In this document: positions 6,829-21,334 of the stretch, in pieces
Layout of the letters: the number at the start of each line of letters is the position of its first letter
How positions within the stretch are numbered: position 1 is the stretch's first letter
Assembly (NCBI GenBank): GCA_034667685.1
Contig: JAXDQU010000010.1
Coordinates: 1 to 24,955, forward strand
Direction: 5' to 3'
DNA length: 24,955 nucleotides
DNA from: Thermoplasmata archaeon
GTDB taxonomy: Archaea > Thermoplasmatota > SW-10-69-26 > JACQPN01 > JAJPHT01
Notes under the pieces: model-generated
Seen by the model: only the letters and a program-made list of their open reading frames with translations
Told to the model about the DNA's origin: nothing
Databases searched by the model: none
Program-made: the position numbers and the translations under genes

Positions 6829-8535
6829 CTAGGCCTGGGCCGGCAGCCGCAGCGTGAAGCGCGCGCCCTTGCCCGGCGCGCTCTCCAGGCGCATCTCGCC
6901 CCCGTGCGCCTCGACGATGCCCTTGGACACGGAGAGGCCCAGCCCCGTGCCCTGGCGCTTGGTGGTGAAGAAGGGCTCGAAGAGGCGGCGCTGCACGTCG
7001 GGCGGGATGCCGGGGCCGTCGTCCGCGACCTCGACGAACACGTCGCGCGCCTCCGCCCAGACCTTGAGCTTGACGCGGCCGCCCTGCTGGGCCAGCGCCT
7101 CGCTGGCGTTCTTGACGAGGTTGAGGACGACCTGGTGGAGCTCGGCCGCGTTGGCCTCGACGCGCGGCGCGGCGGGCGCGAGGTCCAGCTCCAGCGCGAC
7201 GTTGCGCGGGAGGCCCAGCTTCACGACCTCGGCCACGTCCTCCGCGATGGCGCGCACGTCCTCGGGCGCGCGCTCGCCGTTGCCCTGGCGCGCGACGGCC
7301 TTGAGCGCGTGCGTGATCTTGTCGACGCGGTCGATGCCCTCCTTGAGGCGCGCGAGCGAGGCGTTGGCGTGCGCGACGTCGCCCTCCTCGATGTCCATGC
7401 GGGTGAGCTCCAGCGCGCCGCGCATGTATGTGACCGGGTTGTTGATCTCGTGCGCGACGCCCGCGACGAGCGTGCCCAGCGCGCTGAGCTTCTCCTGCCT
7501 GGCGATCGTCGCCATCTGCTGGAGCGAGCGCGCCTGGCCGACGGTCGCCGCGAGCTGCTGCGCGACGATGCGCACGAGCCCCTTCTCCACGTCGGTGATG
7601 CCGCTCGCGGCGCGGCGCGGCACGAGGCGCAGCGTCCCGAGGCCCGGCACGGGCTCGTCGAGCGGCGCGGCGCGCGGGTCGCCGGGCGCGAACTCCTCGA
7701 CGATGGGCGCCTGGCCTTCGAGCAGCACCTCGGCGCGGCCCACGCTGGGGAACGCATCGCCGCACGCGCGCAGGACGCGGCGCGAGGCCTCGTCGACGTC
7801 GCTGACGCCCACGAGGTCCTTCGCGACCTGCGTGAGGCGCTTGTGGACCTCCAGCTCGCGGTCCGCGACCGAGGCGAGCACGCCGTAGCGGTACGTGAGG
7901 AACACGAAGGGCATCAGCGCCAGGAGCGTCGCGGGGTGGAGCGACCAGAGCGCCGCGACGGCCACGCCGCCGCCCACGCCGACCGCGCCCGCGAGCAGGC
8001 CGGGCGCCAGGAACCGTCGCGCGAAGATGGCGACGTGCCCCTCGCCGCTCAGGCGGTGGAAGATCCCCGCCACGAGGAAGTTCGAGACGAGCGGGTAGAG
8101 CAGCGCGGCCGGGAGCGCGGCGAGGATCGGCGGAGCGCCCAGGCGCAGGGCCAGCAGGAACGCGCCCGCGGCGGCGCCCGAGGCGAGGACGTTCTGCGCG
8201 AGGTTGAACGTGGCCTTCAGCGCATCGCGCCGCATGCGCGCCTGCTCCAGCAGGCCTGATAGCAGGACGAGAAGCGGGACCGCGGGGACCGGCAGCGCGA
8301 GGAGGCCCACGAAGAGCGCGACCTCGTCGAGCACCATGCGGTGGCGGTGCCCCTGCCAGGCGAACGTGAAGCTCGTCTGCCCCAGGAGGAAGAACGCGGC
8401 GACGAACGTGACGGCGCCAAGCGCGGCGGCCCACGCGGGGCCGGGCAGGCGCAGCGTCGCGGCGCAGAGGCCGAGGACGCCCAGCCCTCCGGCCGCCAGC
8501 GCGAGGACGTAGCGCTTCAGCGCCGCCTCGCTCAC
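6829..8535 (-). CDS. Membrane sensor histidine kinase (multi-TM MASE-like input, linker/GAF-like region, HisKA, HATPase)
   Basis: H-box GVAHEINNP, N-box QVVLNLVKNA, G1 DDGPGIP, F-box LFEPFFTTK, G2 GTGLGLS; several N-terminal TM helices; GTG 8535 overlaps the regulator stop (GTGA). Confidence 0.93.
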   Translation of the reverse strand: MSEAALKRYVLALAAGGLGVLGLCAATLRLPGPAWAAALGAVTFVAAFFLLGQTSFTFAWQGHRHRMVLDEVALFVGLLALPVPAVPLLVLLSGLLEQARMRRDALKATFNLAQNVLASGAAAGAFLLALRLGAPPILAALPAALLYPLVSNFLVAGIFHRLSGEGHVAIFARRFLAPGLLAGAVGVGGGVAVAALWSLHPATLLALMPFVFLTYRYGVLASVADRELEVHKRLTQVAKDLVGVSDVDEASRRVLRACGDAFPSVGRAEVLLEGQAPIVEEFAPGDPRAAPLDEPVPGLGTLRLVPRRAASGITDVEKGLVRIVAQQLAATVGQARSLQQMATIARQEKLSALGTLVAGVAHEINNPVTYMRGALELTRMDIEEGDVAHANASLARLKEGIDRVDKITHALKAVARQGNGERAPEDVRAIAEDVAEVVKLGLPRNVALELDLAPAAPRVEANAAELHQVVLNLVKNASEALAQQGGRVKLKVWAEARDVFVEVADDGPGIPPDVQRRLFEPFFTTKRQGTGLGLSVSKGIVEAHGGEMRLESAPGKGARFTLRLPAQA

Positions 8536-9245
8536 GGCCCGCTCCTGGGGCGCGCGACCATGGCGCGGAGCCGCGCCGCGACGCCCGGGTGGGCCTGGAG
8601 GTACGCGAGCAGCCGCAGCGCGTCCTCCTCGTCGGAGGCGGGCGCGCGCCGCAGCAGCGTGGCGAGGTCGCGCGGCTCGGCCGCCTGCGCGGGCGCGGGC
8701 GCGTGGCGAACGACGGGCACGCTCGTGGGCTGGGGGCGGGGCTGGGGCTCGGGCTGAGGCTGAGGCTGGGGGCGAGCCGCCTGGCGGCGGCTCGCGGCGA
8801 ACTCCGCGAACGCGCCCTCGGGGTAGGCGTAGGGGCCCTCGCGCTCGGCGCGCGCCTTCTCCTCGGGGGGCATCGCGAGGATCTCGAAGACCGCGCGGCC
8901 GAAGTCGTTCCACTCCCACGGCTTGCGCAGGAGCGCGTGGATGCCCCGCGCGCCCATCTGCGGGGGCGTGGCGACGATATCAAGGTAGGCCGTCATCAGC
9001 GCGCGGGGCGCGTGCGGCGCCAGGACGCGCGCCTGCTCCAGAAAGGCGAGGCCGTCCATCTCGGCCATGTGGTTGTCTGATAGCACGAGGTCCACGCGCG
9101 GCGCGGTGGCGAGCCAGGCGAGCGCCTCCTTGGGCTTGTTGAAGGCCTGGACGCGGACCCCTTCGAGCCTGCGCTGGAGGAAGTCGGCCGCGATGGCCGT
9201 CATCGGCTCCATGTCGTCGACGAGGAGGATCACGCGCTCGGCCAT
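8532..9245 (-). CDS. Response regulator receiver protein with PQ-rich linker and small uncharacterised C-terminal domain
   Basis: ILLVDD, LVLSDNHMAEMDG (phospho-acceptor Asp), LMTAY, LRKPW; SD GAGGTGA before ATG 9245. Confidence 0.92.
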   Translation of the reverse strand: MAERVILLVDDMEPMTAIAADFLQRRLEGVRVQAFNKPKEALAWLATAPRVDLVLSDNHMAEMDGLAFLEQARVLAPHAPRALMTAYLDIVATPPQMGARGIHALLRKPWEWNDFGRAVFEILAMPPEEKARAEREGPYAYPEGAFAEFAASRRQAARPQPQPQPEPQPRPQPTSVPVVRHAPAPAQAAEPRDLATLLRRAPASDEEDALRLLAYLQAHPGVAARLRAMVARPRSGP

Positions 9246-9252
9246 GCTCACC

Positions 9253-10566
9253 TCAGCCCAGCGCGCGGAGCAGCGCCGCCGCGTCGGGCTCCTTCTCGCC
9301 CCCGGGCGTCGTCTGCGCGGTGGCGAGGATCTTCGCCTGGAGCTGGTCCGCGGTGAGCGAGGGCGCGTGGTCCCAGCCCAGGAGCGCGACGCCCGCGACG
9401 AGCGCCGTGGCCTGGCTCGTGCCGGTGCCCAGCGCGTAGTCGTGGCCGAGGTACGGGCCCGCGATCAGCTCGCCGGGCGCCACGACGTCGGCCCACGAGC
9501 CCTGGCGCGAGAAGCCGGCGTGCTGCCGGGCCATGTCGATCGCCGCGACGCCCATCACGCCCGGGTAGGCGGCGGGGTACGCGGGGCAGCCGCACTTGCC
9601 GACGTTGCCGGCGCTGGCGATCAGGAGCGCGCCCTTGGCCTGCGCGTACTGGACGGCGCGCGCCACGGCCTGGCTCGACTGGTCGCCGCTCAAGCTCATG
9701 CTGATGACGTTGGCGCCGTGGTCCGCGCACCACTGGATGCCGCGCGCGAGGTTGCCCTCGCCGCCGACGCCCTTGCCATCAAGCACCTTGACGGCCATGA
9801 TCTTCGCGTTGGCGACGCCCGCGGTGCCCAGGCCGTTGCCCACGGCCGCGGCCGCGATGCCCGCGACGTTCGTGCCGTGGCCCGCGTCGTCCATCGGGTC
9901 CGCGTTGTTGCCCACGAAGCTCCAGCCGTGCGTGCCGTCCGCCGCGGTCCACATCTGGGGCGCGAGGTCCGGGTGCGTGTAGTCGACGCCCGAGTCCACG
10001 ACGCAGAGCGTGCGCGTCATGTGGCCCACGTCGATCGCCCACGCGTCGGGGACGTTCAGGTCGGCGAGGCCCCACTGATATCGAAGCAGCGGGTCGGCGA
10101 CGAGCGCGCTGCCGTCCCACCGGGAGCTGTCCCAGCGGCTCGAATCCCAGCGCGACGAGTCCCACCGGCTGGAGTCCCAGCGCGACGAGTCGAGCGTCAG
10201 CGCGTCCCAGCGCGAGGAGTCCCAGCGGGACGAGTCCCACCGGCTCGAATCCCAGCGCGAGGAGTCGGCGCCCACGGCCTGCGCGTGGACGGCGCCGTCG
10301 CGCTCCGCGAACTGCACCGCGGGATCGGCGGCCAGGCTCGCCAGCGCGGCGTCCGCGTCGGGCGCGCGCACGATGGCGAGGCCCAGCGCGGGATCCAGCG
10401 CGAGCACGTCGCCCGCGGCGGAGACGGAGGCCGGCGCGGGGGCGCCCGGCTCGTAGCCCACGAGGAGCACGCCGGGGTCGTGCGCGCCCGCCGCCGGCGC
10501 CAACCCGCCCGCGAGGAGCAGGAGGGCGGCGAGCGTCAGCGCGCGCATCGAGATGGGGGCGTTCAT
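9253..10566 (-). CDS. Secreted subtilisin/thermitase-like S8 serine peptidase with (DSSRW)9 repeat between prodomain and catalytic domain
   Basis: Signal peptide MRALTLAALLLLAGGLAPAAGA; triad motifs VVDSG, GHGTNVAG, GTSQA; oxyanion ASAGN; start ATG 10566 or 10548. Confidence 0.93.
   Translation of the reverse strand: MNAPISMRALTLAALLLLAGGLAPAAGAHDPGVLLVGYEPGAPAPASVSAAGDVLALDPALGLAIVRAPDADAALASLAADPAVQFAERDGAVHAQAVGADSSRWDSSRWDSSRWDSSRWDALTLDSSRWDSSRWDSSRWDSSRWDSSRWDGSALVADPLLRYQWGLADLNVPDAWAIDVGHMTRTLCVVDSGVDYTHPDLAPQMWTAADGTHGWSFVGNNADPMDDAGHGTNVAGIAAAAVGNGLGTAGVANAKIMAVKVLDGKGVGGEGNLARGIQWCADHGANVISMSLSGDQSSQAVARAVQYAQAKGALLIASAGNVGKCGCPAYPAAYPGVMGVAAIDMARQHAGFSRQGSWADVVAPGELIAGPYLGHDYALGTGTSQATALVAGVALLGWDHAPSLTADQLQAKILATAQTTPGGEKEPDAAALLRALG
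10117..10266 (-). repeat. Coding tandem 15-nt repeat: (DSSRW)4-DALTL-(DSSRW)5
   Basis: Read directly; amino acids are invariant while Ser, Arg and Asp codons vary synonymously. Confidence 0.97.
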
Positions 10567-10653
10567 GCGAGAGACTCCAAGAGCCTGCCAGGCAGGCCCA
10601 CAGCCAACCTCGTCTTCTCTCGCCACCCCTACTTAGGGTGTTTCCAGGTCGGT

Positions 10654-12798
10654 TCAAGAGGGGGGCTCAACGTTGCGCGCCATCCGGGCATAGACGTAGC
10701 CCACGCCCAGCAGGATCGCGCCCAAGAGCGCGAAGATGCCCGCGCGGACGGCGAGGTCCGTCTCGCTGAGGTCCACGGCGAAGACGCGCAGGATGACGAA
10801 GCCGAGCACGCCGAAGCCCGTGTAGCGGTACGTGGCCTGCGCGCGCATGGCGAAGCCGGCCGCGAGGTACGCGACGCCCAGCGCGCCCAGGGCGACGCTG
10901 ATCCACGCGCCCTGGAGGTAGGCGAACGCGAAGCTCGCGAGCACGGCCGCGCTGCCGCCCACGAGCGCGATGGCCGAGAGCCGGGCCGTGTCGCGCGAGA
11001 GGCCGCGCGAGCCCCCGTGGTGGACGGCCAGGAGCGCGGCGACGGCGAGCGCCGATTCGATCGCGGCGGCCCACGGGGGCATCGCGGGCGAGACGACGTG
11101 CGCGTCGAACGTGGCGGCCTTGGCGGCCGCGAGGATCGCCACGAGCATCGCCGCGCCGCTCGCCTCCACCGAGACGTCCAGCGACCGCGCCGCCGCGATG
11201 CCCGCGAAGACGCCCGCGAGCGCGAGCAGGAAGAGCGTCGCGAGGAAGGGCGAGGCGAAGAGCGCGAAGGCCCAGACGAGGGCGAAGAGCGCGGTCACCG
11301 TGAAGGCGACGACGCGCTGCGAGGTCCCCGGCGCGCGGGCCATGAGGAAGACCAGGACGGGCGCCAGGAGCGCGAGCGTGACCCACGCCTGCCAGCCGCC
11401 CAGGAGCGCGTCGTCGCCGCCCAGGAGCGCGGCCGGGCGGAGGCGGTCGTCGAGGAAGACGGCGTGCAGGAGCGCGGCCACCGCGAGGGCGGCCGACGCG
11501 ACCCACGCGCCCCGCGAGCGCGACGCGAGGGCGATCGCCAGCGCGGCGAGCGCGTACGTGCAGGTGGTGAGCAGGTCGGGCTCCGGCGCCCCGCTCCAGG
11601 CCAGCGGCACGCCCACGACGAAGAGCGCCATCGCGCACGTGGCGAAGACCGTGGCGCCGGGGCCCGGCGCGAAGCGGCGCGCGGCGAAGACGAGCCCGAG
11701 CGACACCGCGCACCACGCCAGGAGCGCGAGGCCGACCGGCGCCTGCTCGCGGGGGAGCGGCGCGAGCGAGACGGCCAGCGCCCACGCGAGGCTGACGGCG
11801 CCCACGAGCGGCGGCAGGATCGGATCGTCCCCCGGCGCGGGGCGCAGCGCGACGAGGAGGAACGCGGCCGCGGGGACGATCGACGCGACGGCGACGGCGA
11901 GCGCGGGGGCGCCATCCGGCGGCGGGAACCACGCGAGCCCCACGAGGAAGCCGCCCGTGACGAGCGTGCCCAACCCTGCCTCGGGCGTCCAGCGCTTCCA
12001 CGCGACGACGAGGGCGAGGCTCGCGCCCAGGAGCGCGACGTAGGCGAGCGTCACGGCGGGCAGCACGCCCCAGCCCAGGCCCGCGGTGGTGAAGGCGAGC
12101 ACGTAGCCCAGCCCGACGAGGACGCGCGCGTCGCGCCAGAGCGCCACGCCCACCGTGCCCAGCGCGACGAGCGCCATGAGCGCGCCGCTGCCCAGGTCCG
12201 AGAGCCCGGTCACGTCGGCATAGTAGGGAAGCGCGTGCGCGACGAACGCCTCGACGTAGAGGATGCACGCGCCGGTGGCGGCGAGGATCTGCGGGTAGGC
12301 GCCGTAGCGCCCCGCGCGGGCGAGCCACGCGGCCAGGCCGATCAGCGCGAGCGCCACGAGCGCCGCGAGGGCGAGCTGCGCGGGCGGGCCGATCCAGCCG
12401 CGCTCCACGCCCAGCCCCAGGAAGAAGAGCGCCGCGAGGAAGACCAGGACGGCGCCCACCCGCGGCGCGAGGCGCTGGCCCAGGGCGGTCTCCAGGCTCG
12501 GGCGCGGCTTGGGGTCCCACGACGCGGGCTCGTCCTCCACGGCCTCGAACGCGACGGGCTCCTGCGCGGGCAAGGGCCGGGACATGGGCGGCGGCGCGGG
12601 CGCCGGGGCGGGCGGGCGCACGCCGGGGCGGGGGGCGCCGCAGGCTCCGCAGAAGCGGTCCGCCGGGGCCATCCGCATGCCGCAGCTCATGCACGCGACC
12701 GCGGGGCCGCGGGCCGGGGCGAGCCGCGCCTCCAGCTCGCGCACGCGCGCCCGCAGCGCCTCGAACTCGTCCCGTCGGACCGGGGGCTCCTCGCTCAT
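10654..12798 (-). CDS. Large polytopic membrane protein (DUF2339-like) with N-terminal coiled coil and zinc ribbon
   Basis: Start MSEEPP at 12798 with TTTATC about 27 nt upstream; CMSC...FCGACG; LETALGQRLAPRVG, GWIGPP, C-terminal ILRVFAVDL...R...F.LLGAILL. Confidence 0.8.
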   Translation of the reverse strand: MSEEPPVRRDEFEALRARVRELEARLAPARGPAVACMSCGMRMAPADRFCGACGAPRPGVRPPAPAPAPPPMSRPLPAQEPVAFEAVEDEPASWDPKPRPSLETALGQRLAPRVGAVLVFLAALFFLGLGVERGWIGPPAQLALAALVALALIGLAAWLARAGRYGAYPQILAATGACILYVEAFVAHALPYYADVTGLSDLGSGALMALVALGTVGVALWRDARVLVGLGYVLAFTTAGLGWGVLPAVTLAYVALLGASLALVVAWKRWTPEAGLGTLVTGGFLVGLAWFPPPDGAPALAVAVASIVPAAAFLLVALRPAPGDDPILPPLVGAVSLAWALAVSLAPLPREQAPVGLALLAWCAVSLGLVFAARRFAPGPGATVFATCAMALFVVGVPLAWSGAPEPDLLTTCTYALAALAIALASRSRGAWVASAALAVAALLHAVFLDDRLRPAALLGGDDALLGGWQAWVTLALLAPVLVFLMARAPGTSQRVVAFTVTALFALVWAFALFASPFLATLFLLALAGVFAGIAAARSLDVSVEASGAAMLVAILAAAKAATFDAHVVSPAMPPWAAAIESALAVAALLAVHHGGSRGLSRDTARLSAIALVGGSAAVLASFAFAYLQGAWISVALGALGVAYLAAGFAMRAQATYRYTGFGVLGFVILRVFAVDLSETDLAVRAGIFALLGAILLGVGYVYARMARNVEPPS

Positions 12799-12981
12799 CG
12801 GCGGCGCAGGCCCGCGTCGCCGGATAAACCGAGGGACCGTTCCGCCGAGACGAAACGTGGCGTTTTCGGCGCTTGCCGTTCCCTGGCGCGGCGGAGCGGA
12901 AACGGTTATGAAAGGGTAGGGGCTCCCCGCCTCGTCGCTCGTCAGTTTCCTGACGGGTCCGGTTCCATCAGGTGACCTCTG

Positions 12982-14166
12982 ATGTCGCACGCTCGCGCCC
13001 AACTGAACAACTACATCACGGCCTCGCAGGGCCGCGGCCCCTCCAACAAGAACATCTCCGTCGCGGAGCTGGACGCCCTCCTCGCGAAGGTCAAGCCCCA
13101 CCTCGTGAAGGACAACACGTACGAGTGGGACGCGAACATCAACGGCATCATCGTCCGCCTCACCACCAACTCGCTGCACCAGTACGAGTTCTGGGCGCAG
13201 AACTGGTGGCCCGGCCCGAACAACGACAGCGTCCTGCCCCACGGCAAGATCCTCAGCGTCTTCGGCGTGCCCGGCGAGGAGCCCTACGCCTACTACTGCC
13301 CCGACCGCCACACGGCCGTCTTCGTGAACACCGAGTACTACGGCCAGTGCAAGAGCTGGGCGCTGGGCCTCGCGTGCCACATCCTGGAGCAGAAGTACAA
13401 CACGCACTCCATCCACGGCGCGTGCGCCGAGATCGACGGCAAGGGCGTCGTCATCATCGCGCCCACCGGCACCGGCAAGACCACGCAGGTCAACAAGCTG
13501 TTCAAGCACCCGCGCGGCCGCGTCGTGGGCGACGACTGGATCTACATCAAGCACCCCGATAACGTGGACCAGCTCAAGGAGCCGATCCTCGAGGTCACGC
13601 AGCCCGAGAAGTCGCTCTACGTGCGCACGGAGAACGCCAAGGAGGAGCAGTGGCTCCGCCCGATCTTCGACCGCTGCATGCTGGAGAACGTCGTCACCGA
13701 CGCGAAGAACTGCGAGCACCCGCCCGGCGAGAAGTGCGCCATCAAGGACGAGGGCGACTCGAAGTGCTACTGGGGCTTCGGCAACAGCCGCGCCATGATC
13801 CCGCGCGAGTGGATGGCCGGCAAGGAAAAGGTCGGCGACAAGGCGAACCTCCGGCTGATCGTCCTCCTGCGCCGCGACAAGGAGTCGCCCGCCGAGGTCT
13901 CGGTCAACGCCGACGAGGCGATCAAGATCCTCAAGGAGGGCAAGACGCTCATCCGCCCCGGCGCGGGTCCCCGCGAGAAGTGGGGCACCTACGGCTACGA
14001 GCCCTGGTACAACCCGTACCTGCTCTACGCCGACCACGCCCGCCAGGAGAAGTTCTTCCGCGACGAGATGCGCGCGGCCCGCGTCGTCATCATCAACACG
14101 GGCGCGCCCGGCGAGTCCATCGAGCGGACTTACCAGCGCATCCTCGCGAATCTGGAGAAGGCGTAA
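12982..14166 (+). CDS. Compact PEP carboxykinase (ATP)-like / HPr-kinase-superfamily P-loop protein
   Basis: GRGPSNK, YYGQCK, IHGAC, P-loop APTGTGKTT, GDDW, LENVV, NSRA and INTG appear in PckA order; SD AGGTGA; strongly C/G-ending codons. Confidence 0.7.
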   Translation: MSHARAQLNNYITASQGRGPSNKNISVAELDALLAKVKPHLVKDNTYEWDANINGIIVRLTTNSLHQYEFWAQNWWPGPNNDSVLPHGKILSVFGVPGEEPYAYYCPDRHTAVFVNTEYYGQCKSWALGLACHILEQKYNTHSIHGACAEIDGKGVVIIAPTGTGKTTQVNKLFKHPRGRVVGDDWIYIKHPDNVDQLKEPILEVTQPEKSLYVRTENAKEEQWLRPIFDRCMLENVVTDAKNCEHPPGEKCAIKDEGDSKCYWGFGNSRAMIPREWMAGKEKVGDKANLRLIVLLRRDKESPAEVSVNADEAIKILKEGKTLIRPGAGPREKWGTYGYEPWYNPYLLYADHARQEKFFRDEMRAARVVIINTGAPGESIERTYQRILANLEKA

Positions 14167-14227
14167 GCCTCCTGGCAACGCCACGCACCATCAGCCCAAG
14201 AGCGGGCGGGGGGCTCGCCCCCCTGCC

Positions 14228-14467
14228 ATGATCCGAACCACGCTCCTTTCGCTCGCGCTCGTCGGCGCGGCGCTCGGCTTCGTCGCCGGCGCCGCGCAGG
14301 CGACGCCCCCGGTCTGTGGCGACCCGAACGTCGTCCAGGGCGTCCAGGACTGCCCGGCCTACGCCCTCGGCCTCGCCCACGACGAGCTCCACCTCGTCGG
14401 CCACATCCTCTGCCTCGCGACCACCTTCGAGCCGCCGATCATCCAGCCCATCGGCTGCGACCTCTGA
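14228..14467 (+). CDS. Small secreted 4-Cys peptide 1
   Basis: Sec signal ending AQA|TPPVCG; 4 Cys in the 54-aa mature part. Confidence 0.85.
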   Translation: MIRTTLLSLALVGAALGFVAGAAQATPPVCGDPNVVQGVQDCPAYALGLAHDELHLVGHILCLATTFEPPIIQPIGCDL

Positions 14468-14476
14468 GGGACCGCC

Positions 14477-14716
14477 ATGCTCCGCATCTCTCTCCTTGGC
14501 CTCGCGCTCGTGGCGCCGCTCGTCCTCGTCGCGCTCCCCGCGCAGGCCACCCCGTCGCTCTGCGGCGGCAACAACGCCGTCGACGACGCGAAGGACTGCG
14601 CGCAGCCCGTGATCGACGCGCTCCGCCCGATCGTCGACTGCATCCATCCGACCATCAAGCAGGTGGGCGACGAGATCCAGATCCGGCTCTACAACTGCGA
14701 AGACGGCCCCCTCTGA
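14477..14716 (+). CDS. Small secreted 4-Cys peptide 2
   Basis: SD-like GAGGG; signal ending AQA|TPSLCG; 4 Cys. Confidence 0.85.
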   Translation: MLRISLLGLALVAPLVLVALPAQATPSLCGGNNAVDDAKDCAQPVIDALRPIVDCIHPTIKQVGDEIQIRLYNCEDGPL

Positions 14717-14726
14717 GGAACTGACC

Positions 14727-14927
14727 ATGAAGACCACCATCGTCCTGATCGCCCTGCTCGCGACCGCCGCCATCGCGGCGATCGTGCCCGCCGCCGACGC
14801 CTCGCCGCCCACGTGCGGCCCGTCGCCCTACCCCGACCACGCGCTGATCTCGTACGCGTACTGCGGCGTCCAATGCTACGAGACCGACCTGGAGACCCAA
14901 AGTATGGAATGCCAGGTGGGGGCCTAG
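14727..14927 (+). CDS. Small secreted 4-Cys peptide 3
   Basis: SD-like GAGGA; signal ending ADA|SPPTCG; 4 Cys. Confidence 0.85.
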   Translation: MKTTIVLIALLATAAIAAIVPAADASPPTCGPSPYPDHALISYAYCGVQCYETDLETQSMECQVGA

Positions 14928-14929
14928 GC

Positions 14930-15133
14930 ATGCGCGTGGCTCCGATCGTCCTCGCGATGGGCCTCGTGGCCCTGGCCATGATGGCGCTGCCGGCCGCGAG
15001 CGCGTCGCCCCCCTGCGGGCCCCTCGACGCCCACTCGCTGGTGGGCTGCGTGCGCGACGCGGCGTACTGCGCGACTCCCTCCGAGATCTACGAGGACGGC
15101 AACGGCAACATCGTGATCGTGTACCCGTGCTGA
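14930..15133 (+). CDS. Small secreted 4-Cys peptide 4
   Basis: ATG 14930, 2 nt after the previous stop; signal ending ASA|SPPCG; 4 Cys. Confidence 0.85.
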   Translation: MRVAPIVLAMGLVALAMMALPAASASPPCGPLDAHSLVGCVRDAAYCATPSEIYEDGNGNIVIVYPC

Positions 15134-15136
15134 GCG

Positions 15137-16456
<1,320 letters not shown>

Positions 16457-16460
16457 GCTA

Positions 16461-18014
16461 TCACTCGAGATGCTCGTAGGCGGGGAGAGTCAGGAACTCG
16501 GGGAAATCGTCGGCCAGGGCCACGCGCTCGAAGAGGGTGCGCGCCTCCGCCAGGCGGGGAAGCCCTTCGCGCTGGAGCTTGGCGACCTCCTCGTCGACGA
16601 CGCGGCGGACGTGCTCGGCGCTGAACTTGCCGTGCTTGACCCACTGCCAGACCTGGCTGCGGCTGATCTCGGCGGTGGCCGCGTCCTCCATGAGGTTGTG
16701 GATCGCGACCGCGCCGTTGCCGCGCAGCCACGCCTCCAGGTAACGGATGCCGACCTCCACGTTGTTGCGCAGCCCCGCCTCCGTGACCTGACCGCCCCCG
16801 ACGGTGAAGTCGAGGAGCTGCTTCGCGCTGACGTGGACCTCGGGGCGCTGGCGGTCGAGCTGGTTGGCCTTCGCGCCGAGCGCCGCGTCGAAGACCTCGG
16901 TCGCCACGGGCACCAGGTCCGGGTGCGCGACCCACGTCCCATCGAAGCCATCGCGGCTCTCGCGCAGCTTGTCCTCGCGCACCTTCGCGAGCGCGGCCTC
17001 CGTGACCGCCGCGTCCCTGCGGTTCGGGATGAACGCCGCCATCCCACCCATGGCGAACGCGCCGCGCCGGTGGCACGTCTTCACGAGAAGCTCGGTGTAG
17101 GCGCGCATGAACGGCGTCGTCATGGTGAGCTGCGCGCGGTCGGGCAGCAGCACCTCGGGCCGGTTGCGGAACTTCTTGATGACGCTGAAGAGGTAGTCCC
17201 ACCGGCCGGCGTTGAGCCCGGCCGCGTGGTCGCGCAGCTCGTGGAGGATCTCGTCCATCTCGAACGCCGCGAGGATCGTCTCGACGAGCACCGTCGCCTT
17301 GAACGAGCCGTGCGGCGCGCCCAGGCGCTGCTCGCTGAAGGTGAAGACATCGTTCCACAGCCGCGCCTCCAGGTGGCTCTCCATCTTGGGCAGGTAGAAC
17401 GCGGCCGTCATGCCCTTCTCGCGGAGGCGCCGCGCGTTGTGGAAGACGTAGAGGCCGAAGTCGAAGAGCGAGCCGCTCATGGGCTGCCCGTCCACGAGCA
17501 CGTGCTTCTCCACGAGGTGCCAGCCGCGCGGGCGGACCAGCAGGACCGCGACCTTCGGGTTCAGGTGATAGCTTTTCTCCGCGGTGTCGACGCGGATGGC
17601 GCCGTCGATCGCGTCGACGAGGTTCGCCTGGCCCACGACGAGGTTCTCCCACGTGGGCGCGTTGGCGTCCTCGAAGTCGGCCATGAACGTCCGCGCGCCG
17701 GAGTTGAGGGCGTTGATGACCATCTTGCGCTCGGTGGGCCCCGTGATCTCGACGCGGCGGTCCTGCAGGTCGGGCGGAATGGGCGCCACGCGCCACTCCG
17801 ACTCGCGCACGTGCCGCGTCTCGGCCAGGAAGTCGGGCCACTCGCCCGCGTCGAGCCTGCGCTGGCGCTCCACGCGCGCCGCGAGCAGCTTCTCCCGGGT
17901 GGGGCCGAAGCGCGCATGCAGCTCGCCCAGGAAGGCAAGCGCGTCGGGGGTCAGGATGCGGGAATCGGCGGGGGTCGGAGGTGCGCGGACCTCGACGCGC
18001 GGAGCGGGCGCCAT
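16461..18014 (-). CDS. aceB: Malate synthase A
   Basis: [70 protein letters not shown]; start ATG 18014. Confidence 0.97.
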
Positions 18015-18527: not shown

Positions 18528-19547
18528 TTGGACGACGTCGCGATCCGCACGCGCGGGCTCACGAAGACCTTCCCGCCCAAGAAGCGCCGGCTCGTCGAGA
18601 TCGTCCGGCGCGAGCCGCGCAAGCCCGCCTTCACCGCGCTCGCGGGCGTCGACCTGGACGTGCGGCGGGGCGAGCTCTTCGGCCTGCTCGGGCCCAACGG
18701 CGCGGGGAAGACCACCCTGGTCAAGATCCTCAGCACGCTGCTCCTGCCCACCTCGGGCGAGGCGAGCATCCTGGGGCTCGACGTGCGCAAGGACGCGCAG
18801 CAAATCCGGCAGCGCGTGGGCGTCGTCCTGGGCGGCGACCGCGCGCTCTACTGGCGCCTGACCGCGCGCGAGAACCTGTGGTACTTCTCGCAGCTCTACG
18901 ACATGCCCTCGGCGAAGGCGCGCGCGAAGATCGAGGATGTCCTTTCGATCGTCGGGCTCGCGGAGCGAGCCGACGATCGGGTCGAAAATTATAGCAAGGG
19001 CATGAAGCAGCGGCTGCACATCGCGCGCGGCCTGCTCACCGACCCGGAGATCCTCCTCCTGGACGAGCCCACCATCGGCCTCGACCCGCACGCCGGGCGC
19101 AGCCTGCGCGCGCTCGTGCGCGACCTCGTGGACAAGCACGGCCGCACGGTCATCCTCACGACGCACTACATGTACGAGGCCGACGAGCTCTCCGACCGCA
19201 TCGGCGTGCTCCACAAGGGGCGCATCATCGCGCTTGACACCAGCGCGAGCCTCAAGGCGCGCTACGCCAAGGACCGCGCGCTCCTTGTGCGCGTCCAAGG
19301 AGACGCCGCGGAGGCCGAGCGCATCCTGCGCGCCCACGGCGAGGTGCGCCGCGCCGCGGCCGAGGGTGATGTCACCGCGCTGCGCCTGCGCGCCGTCCCC
19401 GACGCCTCGGAGCTGGCCGCGCGCTTGACCAAGGCCGGCGTGCATCTCGTCGGGCTTCAGGTGGAGGAGCCTTCGCTCGAAGACGTCTTCGTCGCGCTCA
19501 CGGGCGAAGGGCTCGTGGAGCAGAAGCACGAGGGGGACGACGAATGA
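18528..19547 (+). CDS. ABC-2/DrrA-type exporter ATP-binding subunit
   Basis: Walker A GPNGAGKTT, signature YSKGMKQRL, Walker B LLLDEPTIGLD, TTHYM, C-terminal PSLEDVF; TTG start. Confidence 0.95.
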   Translation: MDDVAIRTRGLTKTFPPKKRRLVEIVRREPRKPAFTALAGVDLDVRRGELFGLLGPNGAGKTTLVKILSTLLLPTSGEASILGLDVRKDAQQIRQRVGVVLGGDRALYWRLTARENLWYFSQLYDMPSAKARAKIEDVLSIVGLAERADDRVENYSKGMKQRLHIARGLLTDPEILLLDEPTIGLDPHAGRSLRALVRDLVDKHGRTVILTTHYMYEADELSDRIGVLHKGRIIALDTSASLKARYAKDRALLVRVQGDAAEAERILRAHGEVRRAAAEGDVTALRLRAVPDASELAARLTKAGVHLVGLQVEEPSLEDVFVALTGEGLVEQKHEGDDE

Positions 19548-19557
19548 TATTCCTCGG

Positions 19558-19652
19558 CCCGGCCCCACGCGAAGAGCACGAAGACACGAAGGCACGAAGG
19601 TTGCGAGAGCTTCGTGCTCTTCGTGTCTTCGTGCTCTTCGCGTGGGGTCGGG
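19558..19652. repeat. REP-like hairpin of tandem CACGAAG units (copy A)
   Basis: About 42-bp near-perfect inverted arms with a 10-nt loop, located between the ATPase and permease genes. Confidence 0.9.
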
Positions 19653-19665
19653 CGTGGCCAGGAGG

Positions 19666-20508
19666 ATGCCGAACGTGAGCGCGATGAGCTACGCCCGCGT
19701 GATCCGCGCCGGGCTCCGGAAGAACTGGATCCTGAGCTACACGTATCCGACGTACATGCTCAACCGCATCGTGGGCCCGATCGTGTGGATCAGCATCTCG
19801 CTGCTCTCCTACCTCGCGCTCACGGACCAGGCCAGCGTGCAGCAGGCGTTCCTGCGCAGCGGCAACACGGGGAACTTCGTCGCGTTCCTGATCCTGGGCC
19901 AGACGATCTTCTCGCTCTTCAGCACGCTCAACTTCCGCGGCGGGATGGCGATCCAGCGCGAGCGTTGGCAGGGCACGTTGGAGATCGTGATGCTGGCGCC
20001 CACGAGCCGCGTCGCGTTCATCCTGGGCGAGACGATCTATGGCCTGATCGACGGGGGCTGGACGATCCTGCTCGCGCTGGTCGTGACGGGCTTCGCCTAC
20101 TCGGCGGGGTTCAGCGTCGCGCATCCCGGCCTCGCGGTCGCGGTGATCGGCCTGACGCTCTCCAGCATGGTGGCGCTCTCGCTCTTCTTCGCGGCGTTCT
20201 ACGTGCTCACGCGCAGCGCGGGCCCGCTCTCGAACGCGATCCAGACGCCCGTGCGCTTTTTCACCGGCACGAGCTTCCCCATCAACGCGCTGCCCGGCTT
20301 CCTCCAGGCCGTGAGCTTCGCGCTCCCCATGACCTACGGCATGATCGCCACGCGGCAGGTGTTCACCGGGGAGGGGACGTGGACGAGCCTCGCGCCCACG
20401 CTGCTCGCGCTCGCGGCGTTCACCGTCGGCTTCTGGGTCGTGGGCGTGCTCCTCATCCGCCGCATGGAGAACCTGGCCAAGACGAGGGGGACGCTGCATA
20501 CTTACTAG
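19666..20508 (+). CDS. ABC-2 type permease 1
   Basis: About six TM segments, ERWQGTLEIVMLAP, FPINALPGFLQ...LPMTY; start ATG 19666, GTG 19675 or ATG 19684. Confidence 0.92.
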   Translation: MPNVSAMSYARVIRAGLRKNWILSYTYPTYMLNRIVGPIVWISISLLSYLALTDQASVQQAFLRSGNTGNFVAFLILGQTIFSLFSTLNFRGGMAIQRERWQGTLEIVMLAPTSRVAFILGETIYGLIDGGWTILLALVVTGFAYSAGFSVAHPGLAVAVIGLTLSSMVALSLFFAAFYVLTRSAGPLSNAIQTPVRFFTGTSFPINALPGFLQAVSFALPMTYGMIATRQVFTGEGTWTSLAPTLLALAAFTVGFWVVGVLLIRRMENLAKTRGTLHTY

Positions 20509-21334
20509 CTGGAGACGAACGTTCTCGTCCACCTTCAAGGCCAACCTGCTCGCCCAGTTCCGCGGCTACACGCTCTCGGGCTGGACGATCAGCGCGATCC
20601 TCAGCCCCGTGTTCCTCTTCGCCGGCGCGTACGTCGTGCTCGTCTTCCTGGGGCAGGGCGCCTCGCCGACGCGCTTCTTCGCGCTCACGGGCTATCCGAG
20701 CTACGTCGCGTTCGTGATCCTCGGCGTGGCGTTCAACGGCCTGGCCACCAGCGCGCTGGAGGACGGCGGCAACGCGGTCTATGACGAGGAGAGCAACGGC
20801 ACGTGGGAATTGCTATCGCTGGCGCCCTTCAACCGCTTCGTGTGGATGTTCGCCAAGACGCTCGCGGGCCTCGTCACGGGCTTCGTGGACTTCTTCGCGG
20901 TGCTCCTGCTGGGCAGCGTCGTCTTCGGCGTCACGCCGACGTGGCACGGCCTGCTCGTGGCGTTCGCCGGGATCGTGCTGACGCTCGTCGCGCTCCAGGG
21001 GCTCGGCTTCGCGATGGCGGCGCTGGGCCTGCGCTGGAAGCAGCCCTACGCGCTCGCGTTCATCCTCAGCCCGGTCGTCGTGCTGCTCTCGGGCATGATG
21101 TTCCCCATCGCCGCGCTGCCCGCGTGGGCGCAGCCGCTCTCCAACGTCGTGCCGCTCACGCACGGCTTGACCATCGTGCGCGACGGCATCCTGCTCGACC
21201 ACGGCTTCGCGCAGCTCGCGCCCGTCTTCCTGCGCCTCGCGCTCACCGGCGCGGCGCTCATGGCGATCGGCTTCCTCTCGTTCCGCCACATGGAGCGCGC
21301 GGCGAGGGAGCGCGGCACGCTCGGGCGCTACTGA
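20498..21334 (+). CDS. ABC-2 type permease 2 (probable non-canonical ATA start at 20498; first canonical start is GTG 20609)
   Basis: EESNGTWELLSLAP, FPIAALPAWAQ...PLTH; the frame is open and paralogous to the permease 1 N-terminus back to about 20498. Confidence 0.85.
   Translation: MLTSWRRTFSSTFKANLLAQFRGYTLSGWTISAILSPVFLFAGAYVVLVFLGQGASPTRFFALTGYPSYVAFVILGVAFNGLATSALEDGGNAVYDEESNGTWELLSLAPFNRFVWMFAKTLAGLVTGFVDFFAVLLLGSVVFGVTPTWHGLLVAFAGIVLTLVALQGLGFAMAALGLRWKQPYALAFILSPVVVLLSGMMFPIAALPAWAQPLSNVVPLTHGLTIVRDGILLDHGFAQLAPVFLRLALTGAALMAIGFLSFRHMERAARERGTLGRY

Follow-up and report, generated by a model that had tools for sequence, protein, structure and literature searches.

A tandem array of four predicted Sec-exported four-cysteine mini-proteins in a soil Thermoplasmatota genome and the class of small cysteine-rich proteins around it

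Mature halocin C8 is a small, cysteine-rich peptide, while the haloarchaeal CPxCG zinc-finger micro-proteins are small cytoplasmic proteins without a signal, whose four cysteines form two C(P)xCG knuckles. Among the actinomycete inhibitors, tendamistat comprises 74 amino acids (aa), and the Streptomyces subtilisin inhibitor (SSI) belongs to the small secreted two-disulfide kind. According to the available text of a preprint, halocins C8 and H4 of haloarchaea use the twin-arginine (Tat) pathway, and C8 is cut from a 283-aa precursor with an immunity domain (bioRxiv 10.64898/2026.07.27.741052). Here, we describe an array of four small open reading frames (ORFs) at positions 14228-15133 of contig JAXDQU010000010.1 from a Thermoplasmata archaeon. 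The window analysed is the entire contig (C10; 24,955 nucleotides, nt), which belongs to a Thermoplasmatota metagenome-assembled genome (MAG) of 3.48 Mb in 124 contigs, 99% complete. On balance, we lean towards reading the four products as mini-proteins that are exported by Sec, carry two disulfides and no anchor, belong to a fast-evolving repertoire outside the cell and would act as diffusible binding proteins.

The four genes and their relatives

The four ORFs lie co-oriented and head to tail on the plus strand, separated by gaps of 9, 10 and 2 nt, in a window whose GC content per kb ranges from 66 to 78%. A sequence-only reading of this DNA had described four ORFs of 66-79 aa with these gaps, each with a signal ending in AxA and exactly four Cys; this layout was confirmed, and a recount on the translations gave the same Cys spacings as before. 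With signal peptides assigned by an in-house heuristic and by eye, the genes are as follows.

14228..14467, plus strand: ORF1, 79 aa; predicted signal residues 1-25, ending in AQA; mature part of 54 aa beginning TPPVCG, four Cys (11/19/14), net charge -6, no Lys or Arg
14477..14716, plus strand: ORF2, 79 aa; predicted signal residues 1-24, ending in AQA; mature part of 55 aa beginning TPSLCG, four Cys (11/13/18), net charge -5
14727..14927, plus strand: ORF3, 66 aa; predicted signal residues 1-25, ending in ADA; mature part of 41 aa beginning SPPTCG, four Cys (15/3/11), net charge -5 (41-aa form), also without Lys or Arg
14930..15133, plus strand: ORF4, 67 aa, ATG at 14930; predicted signal residues 1-25, ending in ASA; mature part of 42 aa beginning SPPCG, four Cys (10/6/19), the last residue being Cys, net charge -4

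All four N-termini run from a single Arg or Lys through a hydrophobic stretch to the AxA end, and the sequences as read contain no twin-arginine motif, no lipobox and no C-terminal hydrophobic tail. Membership among the lipoproteins was rejected, as no [LVI][ASTVI][GAS]C lipobox occurs at the signal end of ORF1-4; the residues preceding the first Cys are PPV, PSL, PPT and SPP, and position -1 is never Gly, Ala or Ser. The isoelectric points (pI) of the mature parts are 4.05-4.27 (ORF3 computed on a form 3 residues short), and their grand average of hydropathy (GRAVY) is 0.45 in ORF1 (hydrophobic) and -0.17 and -0.30 in ORF2 and ORF3 (hydrophilic). There are no CxxC pairs in ORF1-4 and a single CxxxC, in ORF3 only, while ORF1 contains 3 His.

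Long ORFs are cheap at 70% GC, and several overlapping ORFs of 96-239 aa share the DNA of the array. In the four proposed frames, GC at third codon positions (GC3) is 0.94-0.96 (0.95 in ORF1), compared with 0.95-0.98 in the flanking enzymes, and the codon position of highest GC changes frame exactly at the boundaries of ORF3 and ORF4. A codon log-odds table was trained on 616 long ORFs of the genome and tested on 70-codon chunks, which scored 0.98 ± 0.25 bit/codon in the true frame and -1.46 ± 1.05 off frame, with 0.9% of the off-frame chunks above 0.3. On this scale ORF1 to ORF4 scored 0.88, 0.93, 0.73 and 0.77, and the overlapping antisense or alternative ORFs of the array -0.27 to -1.84. 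By composition, the four ORFs are real coding genes, as had been claimed from the sequence alone, because both GC3 and codon log-odds are gene-like in exactly these four frames. Moreover, each of the three internal starts is preceded by a Shine-Dalgarno-like motif.

14466..14470, plus strand: GAGGG, overlapping the ORF1 stop, 6 nt 5' of the ORF2 ATG
14715..14719, plus strand: GAGGA, overlapping the ORF2 stop, 7 nt 5' of the ORF3 ATG
14915..14922, plus strand: GGTGGGGG, within the end of ORF3, 7 nt 5' of the ORF4 ATG

For comparison, GGTGA lies 6 nt ahead of the ATG of the upstream enzyme gene, and ORF1 has only a G-run, 14 nt upstream. Since GGTGGGGG stands 7 nt before the ATG at 14930, this start is favoured for ORF4 over the ATG at 14909; in public gene calls ORF4 is likewise 67 aa long. 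The array would be translated in series, each internal start being served by the G-rich ribosome-binding motif 6-7 nt ahead of it.

The relatedness of the four products is clearest for the first two. With ORF1 as the query, ORF2 was found at E 2.7e-5 (52% over residues 1-45) and ORF3 only at 0.17. The mature parts of ORF1 and ORF2 align with a z of 4.9, a score that 0 of 300 shuffles reach and that ranks 1 when 103 other small Cys-rich peptides from the genome are compared. At the DNA level the following trace was found.

14225..14356 (5' part of ORF1) against 14474-14602 (ORF2), plus strand: duplication trace, collinear, 72-79% DNA identity over about 130 nt at a spacing of 246-249 nt

This likeness runs from the start codon to the second Cys codon, and the 3' halves are unalignable. 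On these alignments, ORF2 is a tandem duplicate of ORF1. Between the two, non-synonymous divergence amounts to 0.38 for the mature part and 0.22 for the signal, the proportions of synonymous differences being equal (pS 0.28 and 0.27). A comparison of signal and mature parts had been proposed as a check, and the mature part does diverge more, but positive selection does not follow from it: with GC3 near 0.95, which reflects codon bias, the ratio is not readable in that way. The pair shows a conserved-signal, variable-mature pattern drawn from small numbers, and the ratios for all other pairs, being saturated (pS 0.42-0.63), were left uninterpreted.

For the mature parts of ORF3 and ORF4 the similarity is marginal (z 2.15, 12 of 300 shuffles reaching the score, ranks 7 and 9), and for the remaining four pairs of mature parts it lies at chance level. 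The idea of one duplicated and diversified family of four thus stands for ORF1 and ORF2, is marginal for ORF3 with ORF4, and does not extend to the other four pairs. ORF3 and ORF4 are tied to the first two by the N-terminal motif, the number of Cys and adjacency. The motif [ST]P[PS]x(0-1)CG was found within the N-terminal 50 aa in 4 of the 1098 signal-like coding ORFs of the genome (see the census below), exactly the ORFs of the array, and an all-frame regular-expression search gave 21 matches, of which only these four stand behind a signal. The motif put forward earlier is, within its own genome, confined to these four adjacent signal-bearing ORFs. The array would have grown by tandem duplication, which is shown for ORF1 and ORF2 and is suggested by the N-terminal motif for ORF3 and ORF4.

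No Pfam family matched any of ORF1-4 at E <= 0.01, and NCBIfam at E <= 0.1 returned only unrelated noise (E 0.056-0.074). In a word-indexed search of 5.8e9 clustered proteins, a 4-row profile found only the window's own proteins, and a 6-row profile, to which the two proteins P0005 and P0006 had been added, found these two besides and no more. An exhaustive scan of 1.84e9 representative proteins at E <= 1e-3 gave 6 matches, namely ORF1-4, P0005 (69 aa, E 2.9e-5) and P0006 (66 aa, E 4.2e-5). The uncharacterised status assumed from the sequence thus agrees with the family and profile searches. Public collections already list the four ORFs as unnamed proteins; gene callers did not overlook them, contrary to one half of the remark that such ORFs are usually missed or left hypothetical.

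Both P0005 and P0006 are ORF3-like, making ORF3 the only array member with relatives elsewhere, and are located on short ENA metagenome contigs of 605 nt and 2749 nt. Conserved in both are the signal end of ORF3, SPPTC, four Cys (spaced 15/3/15 in P0005 and 14/9/10 in P0006) and the stretch DHAL-x-[SD]-Y. A variant of ORF4 on a separate 1094-nt contig is identical at 65 of 67 residues (97%) with every Cys kept, and a scan of JGI metagenomes with this variant recovered a single locus, which encodes an unrelated binding protein and matches through the signal peptide only. All three homologues retain the four Cys, the conservation on which the earlier proposal had depended. The array is absent from the 21 class genomes and 401 phylum genomes searched, in which the matches (G003, G006 and G372) are signal-level only and to other small Cys proteins. 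A second soil study contains an identical contig of 1490 nt that covers 13900-15245, and two further soil studies hold gap-free variant pieces with a few differences (long pieces of runs X3 and X4). The strain differences listed inside ORF2, ORF3 and ORF4 number 8, with 4 synonymous and 4 non-synonymous, and leave the Cys codons untouched.

These data also bear on whether the four are chance or decaying ORFs, not functional genes, left at a rearrangement junction of a 70% GC genome. Such an origin would suit the lack of homologues in 21 class genomes, the flanking blocks that are arranged differently in relatives and the commonness of long chance ORFs at high GC. It is disfavoured by gene-like codon usage and GC3 in exactly four frames, by four starts with signals, of which the three internal ones have Shine-Dalgarno-like motifs, and by a motif present in 4 of 4. 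Moreover, a second study holds the identical sequence, variant strains have it intact, and ORF3-like four-Cys proteins occur elsewhere; a chance origin is therefore barely credible.

A genome-wide class of small signal-bearing cysteine proteins

A census of the genome was made with a heuristic that called for Lys/Arg close to the start, an uncharged, hydrophobic window of 12 residues, cleavage at a small-x-small site and a codon score no lower than 0.4. The 1098 signal-like ORFs mentioned above are its yield, and 293 of them are at most 140 aa long. Sorted by number of Cys, these small ORFs comprise 111 with 0, 38 with 1, 30 with 2, 7 with 3, 52 with 4, 2 with 5, 31 with 6, 3 with 7, 10 with 8, 2 with 9, 2 with 10, 1 with 11, 2 with 12 and 2 with 14, that is, 129 with an even number of at least 2 against 15 with an odd number of at least 3. 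Cys makes up 3.8% of the small mature parts, compared with 0.93% in the larger signal-bearing ORFs.

At least 4 Cys are found in 107 small signal-bearing ORFs, about 3.3% of the ~3250 heuristic gene calls. BLASTP groups them into 75 clusters, of which the largest has 19 members; 35 of the ORFs sit in 12 tandem arrays of 2-5 genes, and the pI is below 5 in 82%, with a median of 4.3. Example arrays lie at C63:14177-15186, C89:8745-10007, C16:2397-3424, C40:1622-2412, C106:22277-23118 and C8:56417-57330, and no Pfam family was found above cut-off for 33 members of the 11 other arrays. ORF1-4 share the marks of a small secreted cysteine-rich class, namely a signal, fewer than ~140 aa, an even number of at least 4 Cys and no anchor. 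With ~107 such genes and 12 arrays in the genome, the array is one instance of a genome-wide class and not a special locus, a context absent from the sequence-only reading. In a sister species (locus L007, G003:C15:217365-220574), at least 5 tandem small exported ORFs with 6-7 Cys lie on one strand, and one of them shares 57% identity over 60 aa with a member of the C63 array. As one small-Cys family is conserved in this way between two species of the genus, turnover differs among families.

Leu and Pro are over-represented at the C-termini of the census proteins: 34% have Pro together with Leu/Ile/Val among their final four residues, against 11-15% of the controls, which were other signal-bearing ORFs. 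Typical ends are VLP, PLA, LAP and PLP, while ORF2 ends in GPL, and such an ending may be a processing or recognition element. In addition, G000:C101:11993-12241 (minus strand, locus L003) encodes an exported protein of 82 aa that has 8 Cys and, at its C-terminus, a CPECGCGEPCPPPY-type tail; the 79-aa ORF beside it is histone-fold-like by eye.

The even-Cys bias of the class, together with the four conserved Cys, points to two disulfides in each mature part of the array, which are predicted on that ground. Alternatively, the Cys, with His, Asp and Glu, could serve as ligands of Zn, Cu or Fe in extracellular metal-binding peptides. Four Cys are a common metal site, the peptides are very acidic, and ORF1 supplies 3 His. 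However, there is no CxxC and one CxxxC (ORF3 only), the Cys spacings differ among the members, an even-Cys bias that continues up to 14 Cys fits disulfides, and exported proteins in oxic soil are expected to oxidise, which leaves metal binding in place of disulfides highly improbable.

AF2 modelled mature ORF2 with a helix at 10-30 and a hairpin at 32-49 (predicted local distance difference test, pLDDT, 68; predicted template-modelling score, pTM, 0.29) and ORF3 at a pLDDT of 57 with a pTM under 0.3. A Foldseek search of the PDB found nothing at E <= 0.001. In the ESM Atlas, ORF2 scored at most 0.78 and mature ORF3 had no usable feature match, the structure rows resting on models with a pLDDT of 0.50-0.53.

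Surface-active or envelope structural peptides, hydrophobin- or chaplin-like, which would coat the cell or soil particles, offer another explanation. A large family of small Cys-rich exported proteins recalls fungal hydrophobins and SSCPs (small proteins that are secreted and rich in cysteine), as far as the available text on these describes them (PMC8596622). To this may be added the hydrophobic mature part of ORF1 (GRAVY 0.45), the C-terminal Pro with Leu/Ile/Val in 34% of the class against 11-15% of the controls, and weak Atlas matches to actinobacterial small proteins, one cluster of which is chaplin-like (score 0.78, below the lead threshold). That Atlas score is nevertheless at chance, ORF2 and ORF3 are hydrophilic (GRAVY -0.17 and -0.30), and neither the 8-Cys pattern of hydrophobins nor amyloid-type repeats nor a Pfam match were found. 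A surface-active role is considered very unlikely.

Flanking genes, transcription and history of the locus

The other genes recognised in the window are listed below, by Pfam except where another model is named.

6829-9251, minus strand: histidine kinase and response regulator
9253-10566, minus strand: S8 subtilase
10654-12798, minus strand: DUF2339 membrane protein
12982..14166, plus strand: P-loop protein of 394 aa, like phosphoenolpyruvate carboxykinase (PEPCK) and HPr kinase (NF006821 at E 3.7e-8, far under its cut-off)
15137..16456, minus strand: isocitrate lyase, convergent, the downstream boundary of the array
16461-18014, minus strand: malate synthase
18528-21334, plus strand: DrrA-like ABC ATPase and two ABC-2 permeases

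Two very long ORFs, at 9067-12975 (plus strand, 1302 aa) and 10654-14184 (minus strand, 1176 aa), are mostly shadows of real genes, namely those for the S8 subtilase, DUF2339 and the PEPCK-like protein; ORF length is misleading at 75% GC.

It had been stated that no modifying enzyme, dedicated exporter or immunity gene is adjacent to the array, and this is borne out, the neighbours being the P-loop gene and isocitrate lyase. No Peptidase_C39 domain is present in the ABC genes at 18528-21334, the only ABC genes of the window. An array of precursors of ribosomally synthesised and post-translationally modified peptides was rejected, as no maturation enzyme stands beside it. Class II double-glycine bacteriocins were likewise rejected, because the leaders are hydrophobic Sec signals ending in AxA and no C39-peptidase ABC exporter is adjacent.

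The four products could be archaeocin-type diffusible toxins directed at soil archaea or bacteria, for which Sec export and signal-peptidase cleavage would suffice without dedicated maturation genes. The peptides are small, exported, Cys-rich, species-restricted and tandemly duplicated, with the mature part diverging fastest, and many such genes occur in the genome. An ABC-2 transporter is encoded 3.4 kb away (18528-21334), and transporters of this type can confer immunity in other systems. However, no immunity gene is adjacent, and the genes for isocitrate lyase and malate synthase, both on the opposite strand, stand between the ABC genes and the array. The peptides are also strongly anionic (pI 4.05-4.27; ORF1 and ORF3 without Lys/Arg), and no halocin or bacteriocin model matched them; the halocin C8 family in particular was rejected, with no TIGR04449 halocin_C8_dom match for ORF1-4 in NCBIfam at E <= 0.1. 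Moreover, the halocins C8 and H4 use Tat, and C8 comes from a 283-aa precursor, as stated in the text available of that study (bioRxiv 10.64898/2026.07.27.741052). Such toxins are an unlikely explanation, and the earlier likening to microhalocins finds no support in signals of Sec and not Tat type, the missing halocin C8 match and the missing large precursor. An antimicrobial role is the classic guess and a poor fit to the strong negative charge; inhibitor, surface-active and signalling roles are candidates on an equal footing.

Tight-binding inhibitors of foreign extracellular hydrolases (proteases, glycosidases), serving envelope protection or polymer competition, have also been considered. 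In size, Sec export, two putative disulfides, acidity and soil habitat the array products match the actinomycete inhibitors, and inhibitor families typically vary their loops over a constant Cys frame. The window also contains a gene for an S8 subtilase (9253-10566), but it lies 3.7 kb off on the opposite strand, beyond two unrelated genes. No Pfam match to A_amylase_inhib, SSI or another inhibitor family was obtained, and this role is held to be distinctly unlikely.

Of the 40 relatives searched, 22 carry the P-loop gene, at 60-95% identity; the relatives recovered through this conserved neighbour are Thermoplasmatota, Thermoplasmata and Thermoplasmatales MAGs of soil, groundwater and sediment. 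Being conserved across the class, the gene is not dedicated to the peptides. Downstream of it, the loci of 18 relatives (two with just 47 and 418 nt) never hold a small Cys-rich ORF, and because the gene is kept in these 18 loci without the array, a role as an HPr-kinase-like kinase of the peptides seems unlikely. The DNA 3' of the P-loop gene (L027-L044) varies in nearly every relative and looks like a variable spot, whose contents include 168-aa and 182-aa ORFs that are PIN/VapC-like by eye, membrane proteins and a secreted 221-aa protein. The P-loop protein itself shows a sub-threshold likeness to ATP-PEPCK over residues 19-378 and also to the HPr kinase C-terminal domain, while a PDB sequence search with its 394 aa gave no match. 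Standing beside glyoxylate-cycle genes, it may be an undescribed PEPCK-like enzyme.

Isocitrate lyase is present in 8 of 8 other genomes of the family, and its distance to the P-loop gene is 15 kb, on the same strand, in G001 and 115 kb in G003. Downstream of isocitrate lyase, no small secreted ORF was found in the loci of 8 relatives with a codon table that was trained on the present genome and may miss genes at lower GC. Since the flanking blocks are arranged differently in the relatives, the array sits at a junction particular to this species.

As for transcription, the 61-nt spacer ahead of ORF1 contains no AT-rich box, and a GC-rich hairpin there does not exceed shuffled sequence in stability (z -0.63). 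The most economical reading is thus that the array is co-transcribed with the gene upstream, and the PEPCK-like gene probably supplies the promoter of the array. A sigma-70 promoter scan, whose model is not applicable to archaea, found nothing. Short RNA-library pieces over 14254-14807 were set aside, as they carry 6 differences per ~37-40 nt and are probably signals of other organisms. At the far end (15131-15139), the stops of ORF4 on the plus strand and isocitrate lyase on the minus strand are 3 nt apart, which leaves no space for separate terminators between the convergent genes.

Proposed action and comparison with known systems

From the features set out above, we infer the following course. 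The array would be transcribed jointly with the upstream PEPCK-like gene, and each of the four pre-proteins would pass through the Sec translocon, with signal peptidase I cleaving behind AxA. The product outside would in each case be an acidic mini-protein of 41-55 residues held by two disulfides, which, having no membrane anchor or sorting tail, may be released or only loosely associated with the surface. Its disulfide-locked core would present variable loops to outside molecules (other microbes, their enzymes or surfaces) and not to a partner in housekeeping. Such an extracellular action on non-self is suggested by the constancy of the N-terminal element and of the Cys number, by variable loops, duplication, restriction to one species and a large repertoire. 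The array would, finally, be part of a lineage-restricted, fast-turning-over repertoire of ~100 anionic even-Cys exported mini-proteins.

Several observations weigh against this reading. The homology of ORF3 and ORF4 to ORF1 and ORF2 is not demonstrable past the first 6 mature residues. The 1098 signal-like ORFs are surely too many, because N-terminal membrane helices are counted by the heuristic. The sole RNA-library contig near the array (207 nt, soil) spans 14037-14242 and reaches just 15 nt into ORF1; its identity is 96-97% (7 differences, one inserted base). It may represent carried-over DNA and is compatible with read-through in a close relative without proving it. No exported thiol oxidase was found in the genome, with no match to VKOR or DsbB; three DSBA-family proteins are encoded without signals (C45:12096-12692, C76:11715-12245 and C102:8537-9115), and the missing exported oxidase is not treated as evidence against disulfides. 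At pLDDT values of 68 and 57 and pTM below 0.3, the models are too weak for fold or Cys pairing. The 4 synonymous and 4 non-synonymous strain differences are too few to show selection, and one of the strain differences (14772) lies beneath many foreign contigs. Anionic charge is unusual for membrane-active antimicrobial peptides, and no feature of ORF1-4 identifies a target.

A literature search at the level of listings and abstracts found no description of such repertoires in archaea. The array is a real, cleanly delimited, new and tiny sequence family of a known general kind, and the genome-wide repertoire is a more interesting object than the array alone, which offers no functional handle and is one among many similar loci of the genome. 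More speculatively, and as a doubtful though conceivable extension, ~3% of the genes (107 of ~3250) might be given to hyper-diverse, anionic, disulfide-locked exported mini-proteins that act on neighbours or their enzymes, an archaeal counterpart of the effector, defensin and conotoxin repertoires of eukaryotes. In that case, the array would have been added recently and in this species only, possibly arising at a rearrangement junction, and would already be duplicating. Almost nothing is known of the dealings of uncultured soil archaea with their neighbours, and a large, fast-evolving set of exported mini-proteins is a place to seek archaeal weapons, inhibitors, signals and adhesins. For this purpose the array is a compact test case, with four members, one demonstrable recent duplication, a family-marking motif and peptides of a size suited to synthesis.

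Like the array products as we read them, the halocins and other archaeocins (C8 with TIGR04449, H4, S8) are archaeal exported peptides or proteins acting outside the cell. In contrast to halocin C8, as far as the preprint text goes, the signals of the array are of Sec type with no RR, and its products are direct pre-proteins of 66-79 aa and not parts of a large precursor. The hosts differ as well, a soil Thermoplasmatota archaeon for the array and haloarchaea for the halocins.

With tendamistat and SSI, the array products share Sec export, a soil microbe as the source, two disulfides (predicted here) and an acidic mature part. Their mature parts are shorter (41-55 aa), and membership in the tendamistat (PF01356) or SSI (PF00720) family was rejected, with no Pfam match at E <= 0.01. 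The CPxCG micro-proteins have in common with the array a small size, an archaeal source, four Cys and an xCG element. However, each ORF of the array carries a signal, lacks CxxC and has a single PxCG in which the first Cys is missing, and membership was rejected on these grounds; the PxCG directly follows the predicted signal-peptidase site, and the spacing of the other three Cys is irregular, unlike that in CPxCG proteins.

The fungal SSCPs belong to another domain of life, with no sequence or fold link to the present proteins, and the archaeal set differs in being uniformly acidic. According to the available text of two articles, the fungal proteins share with the archaeal class the signal, a length of less than ~140 aa and an even number of Cys, and they also form large lineage-specific repertoires, often in tandem and with little sequence conservation (PMC8596622, PMC7170778).

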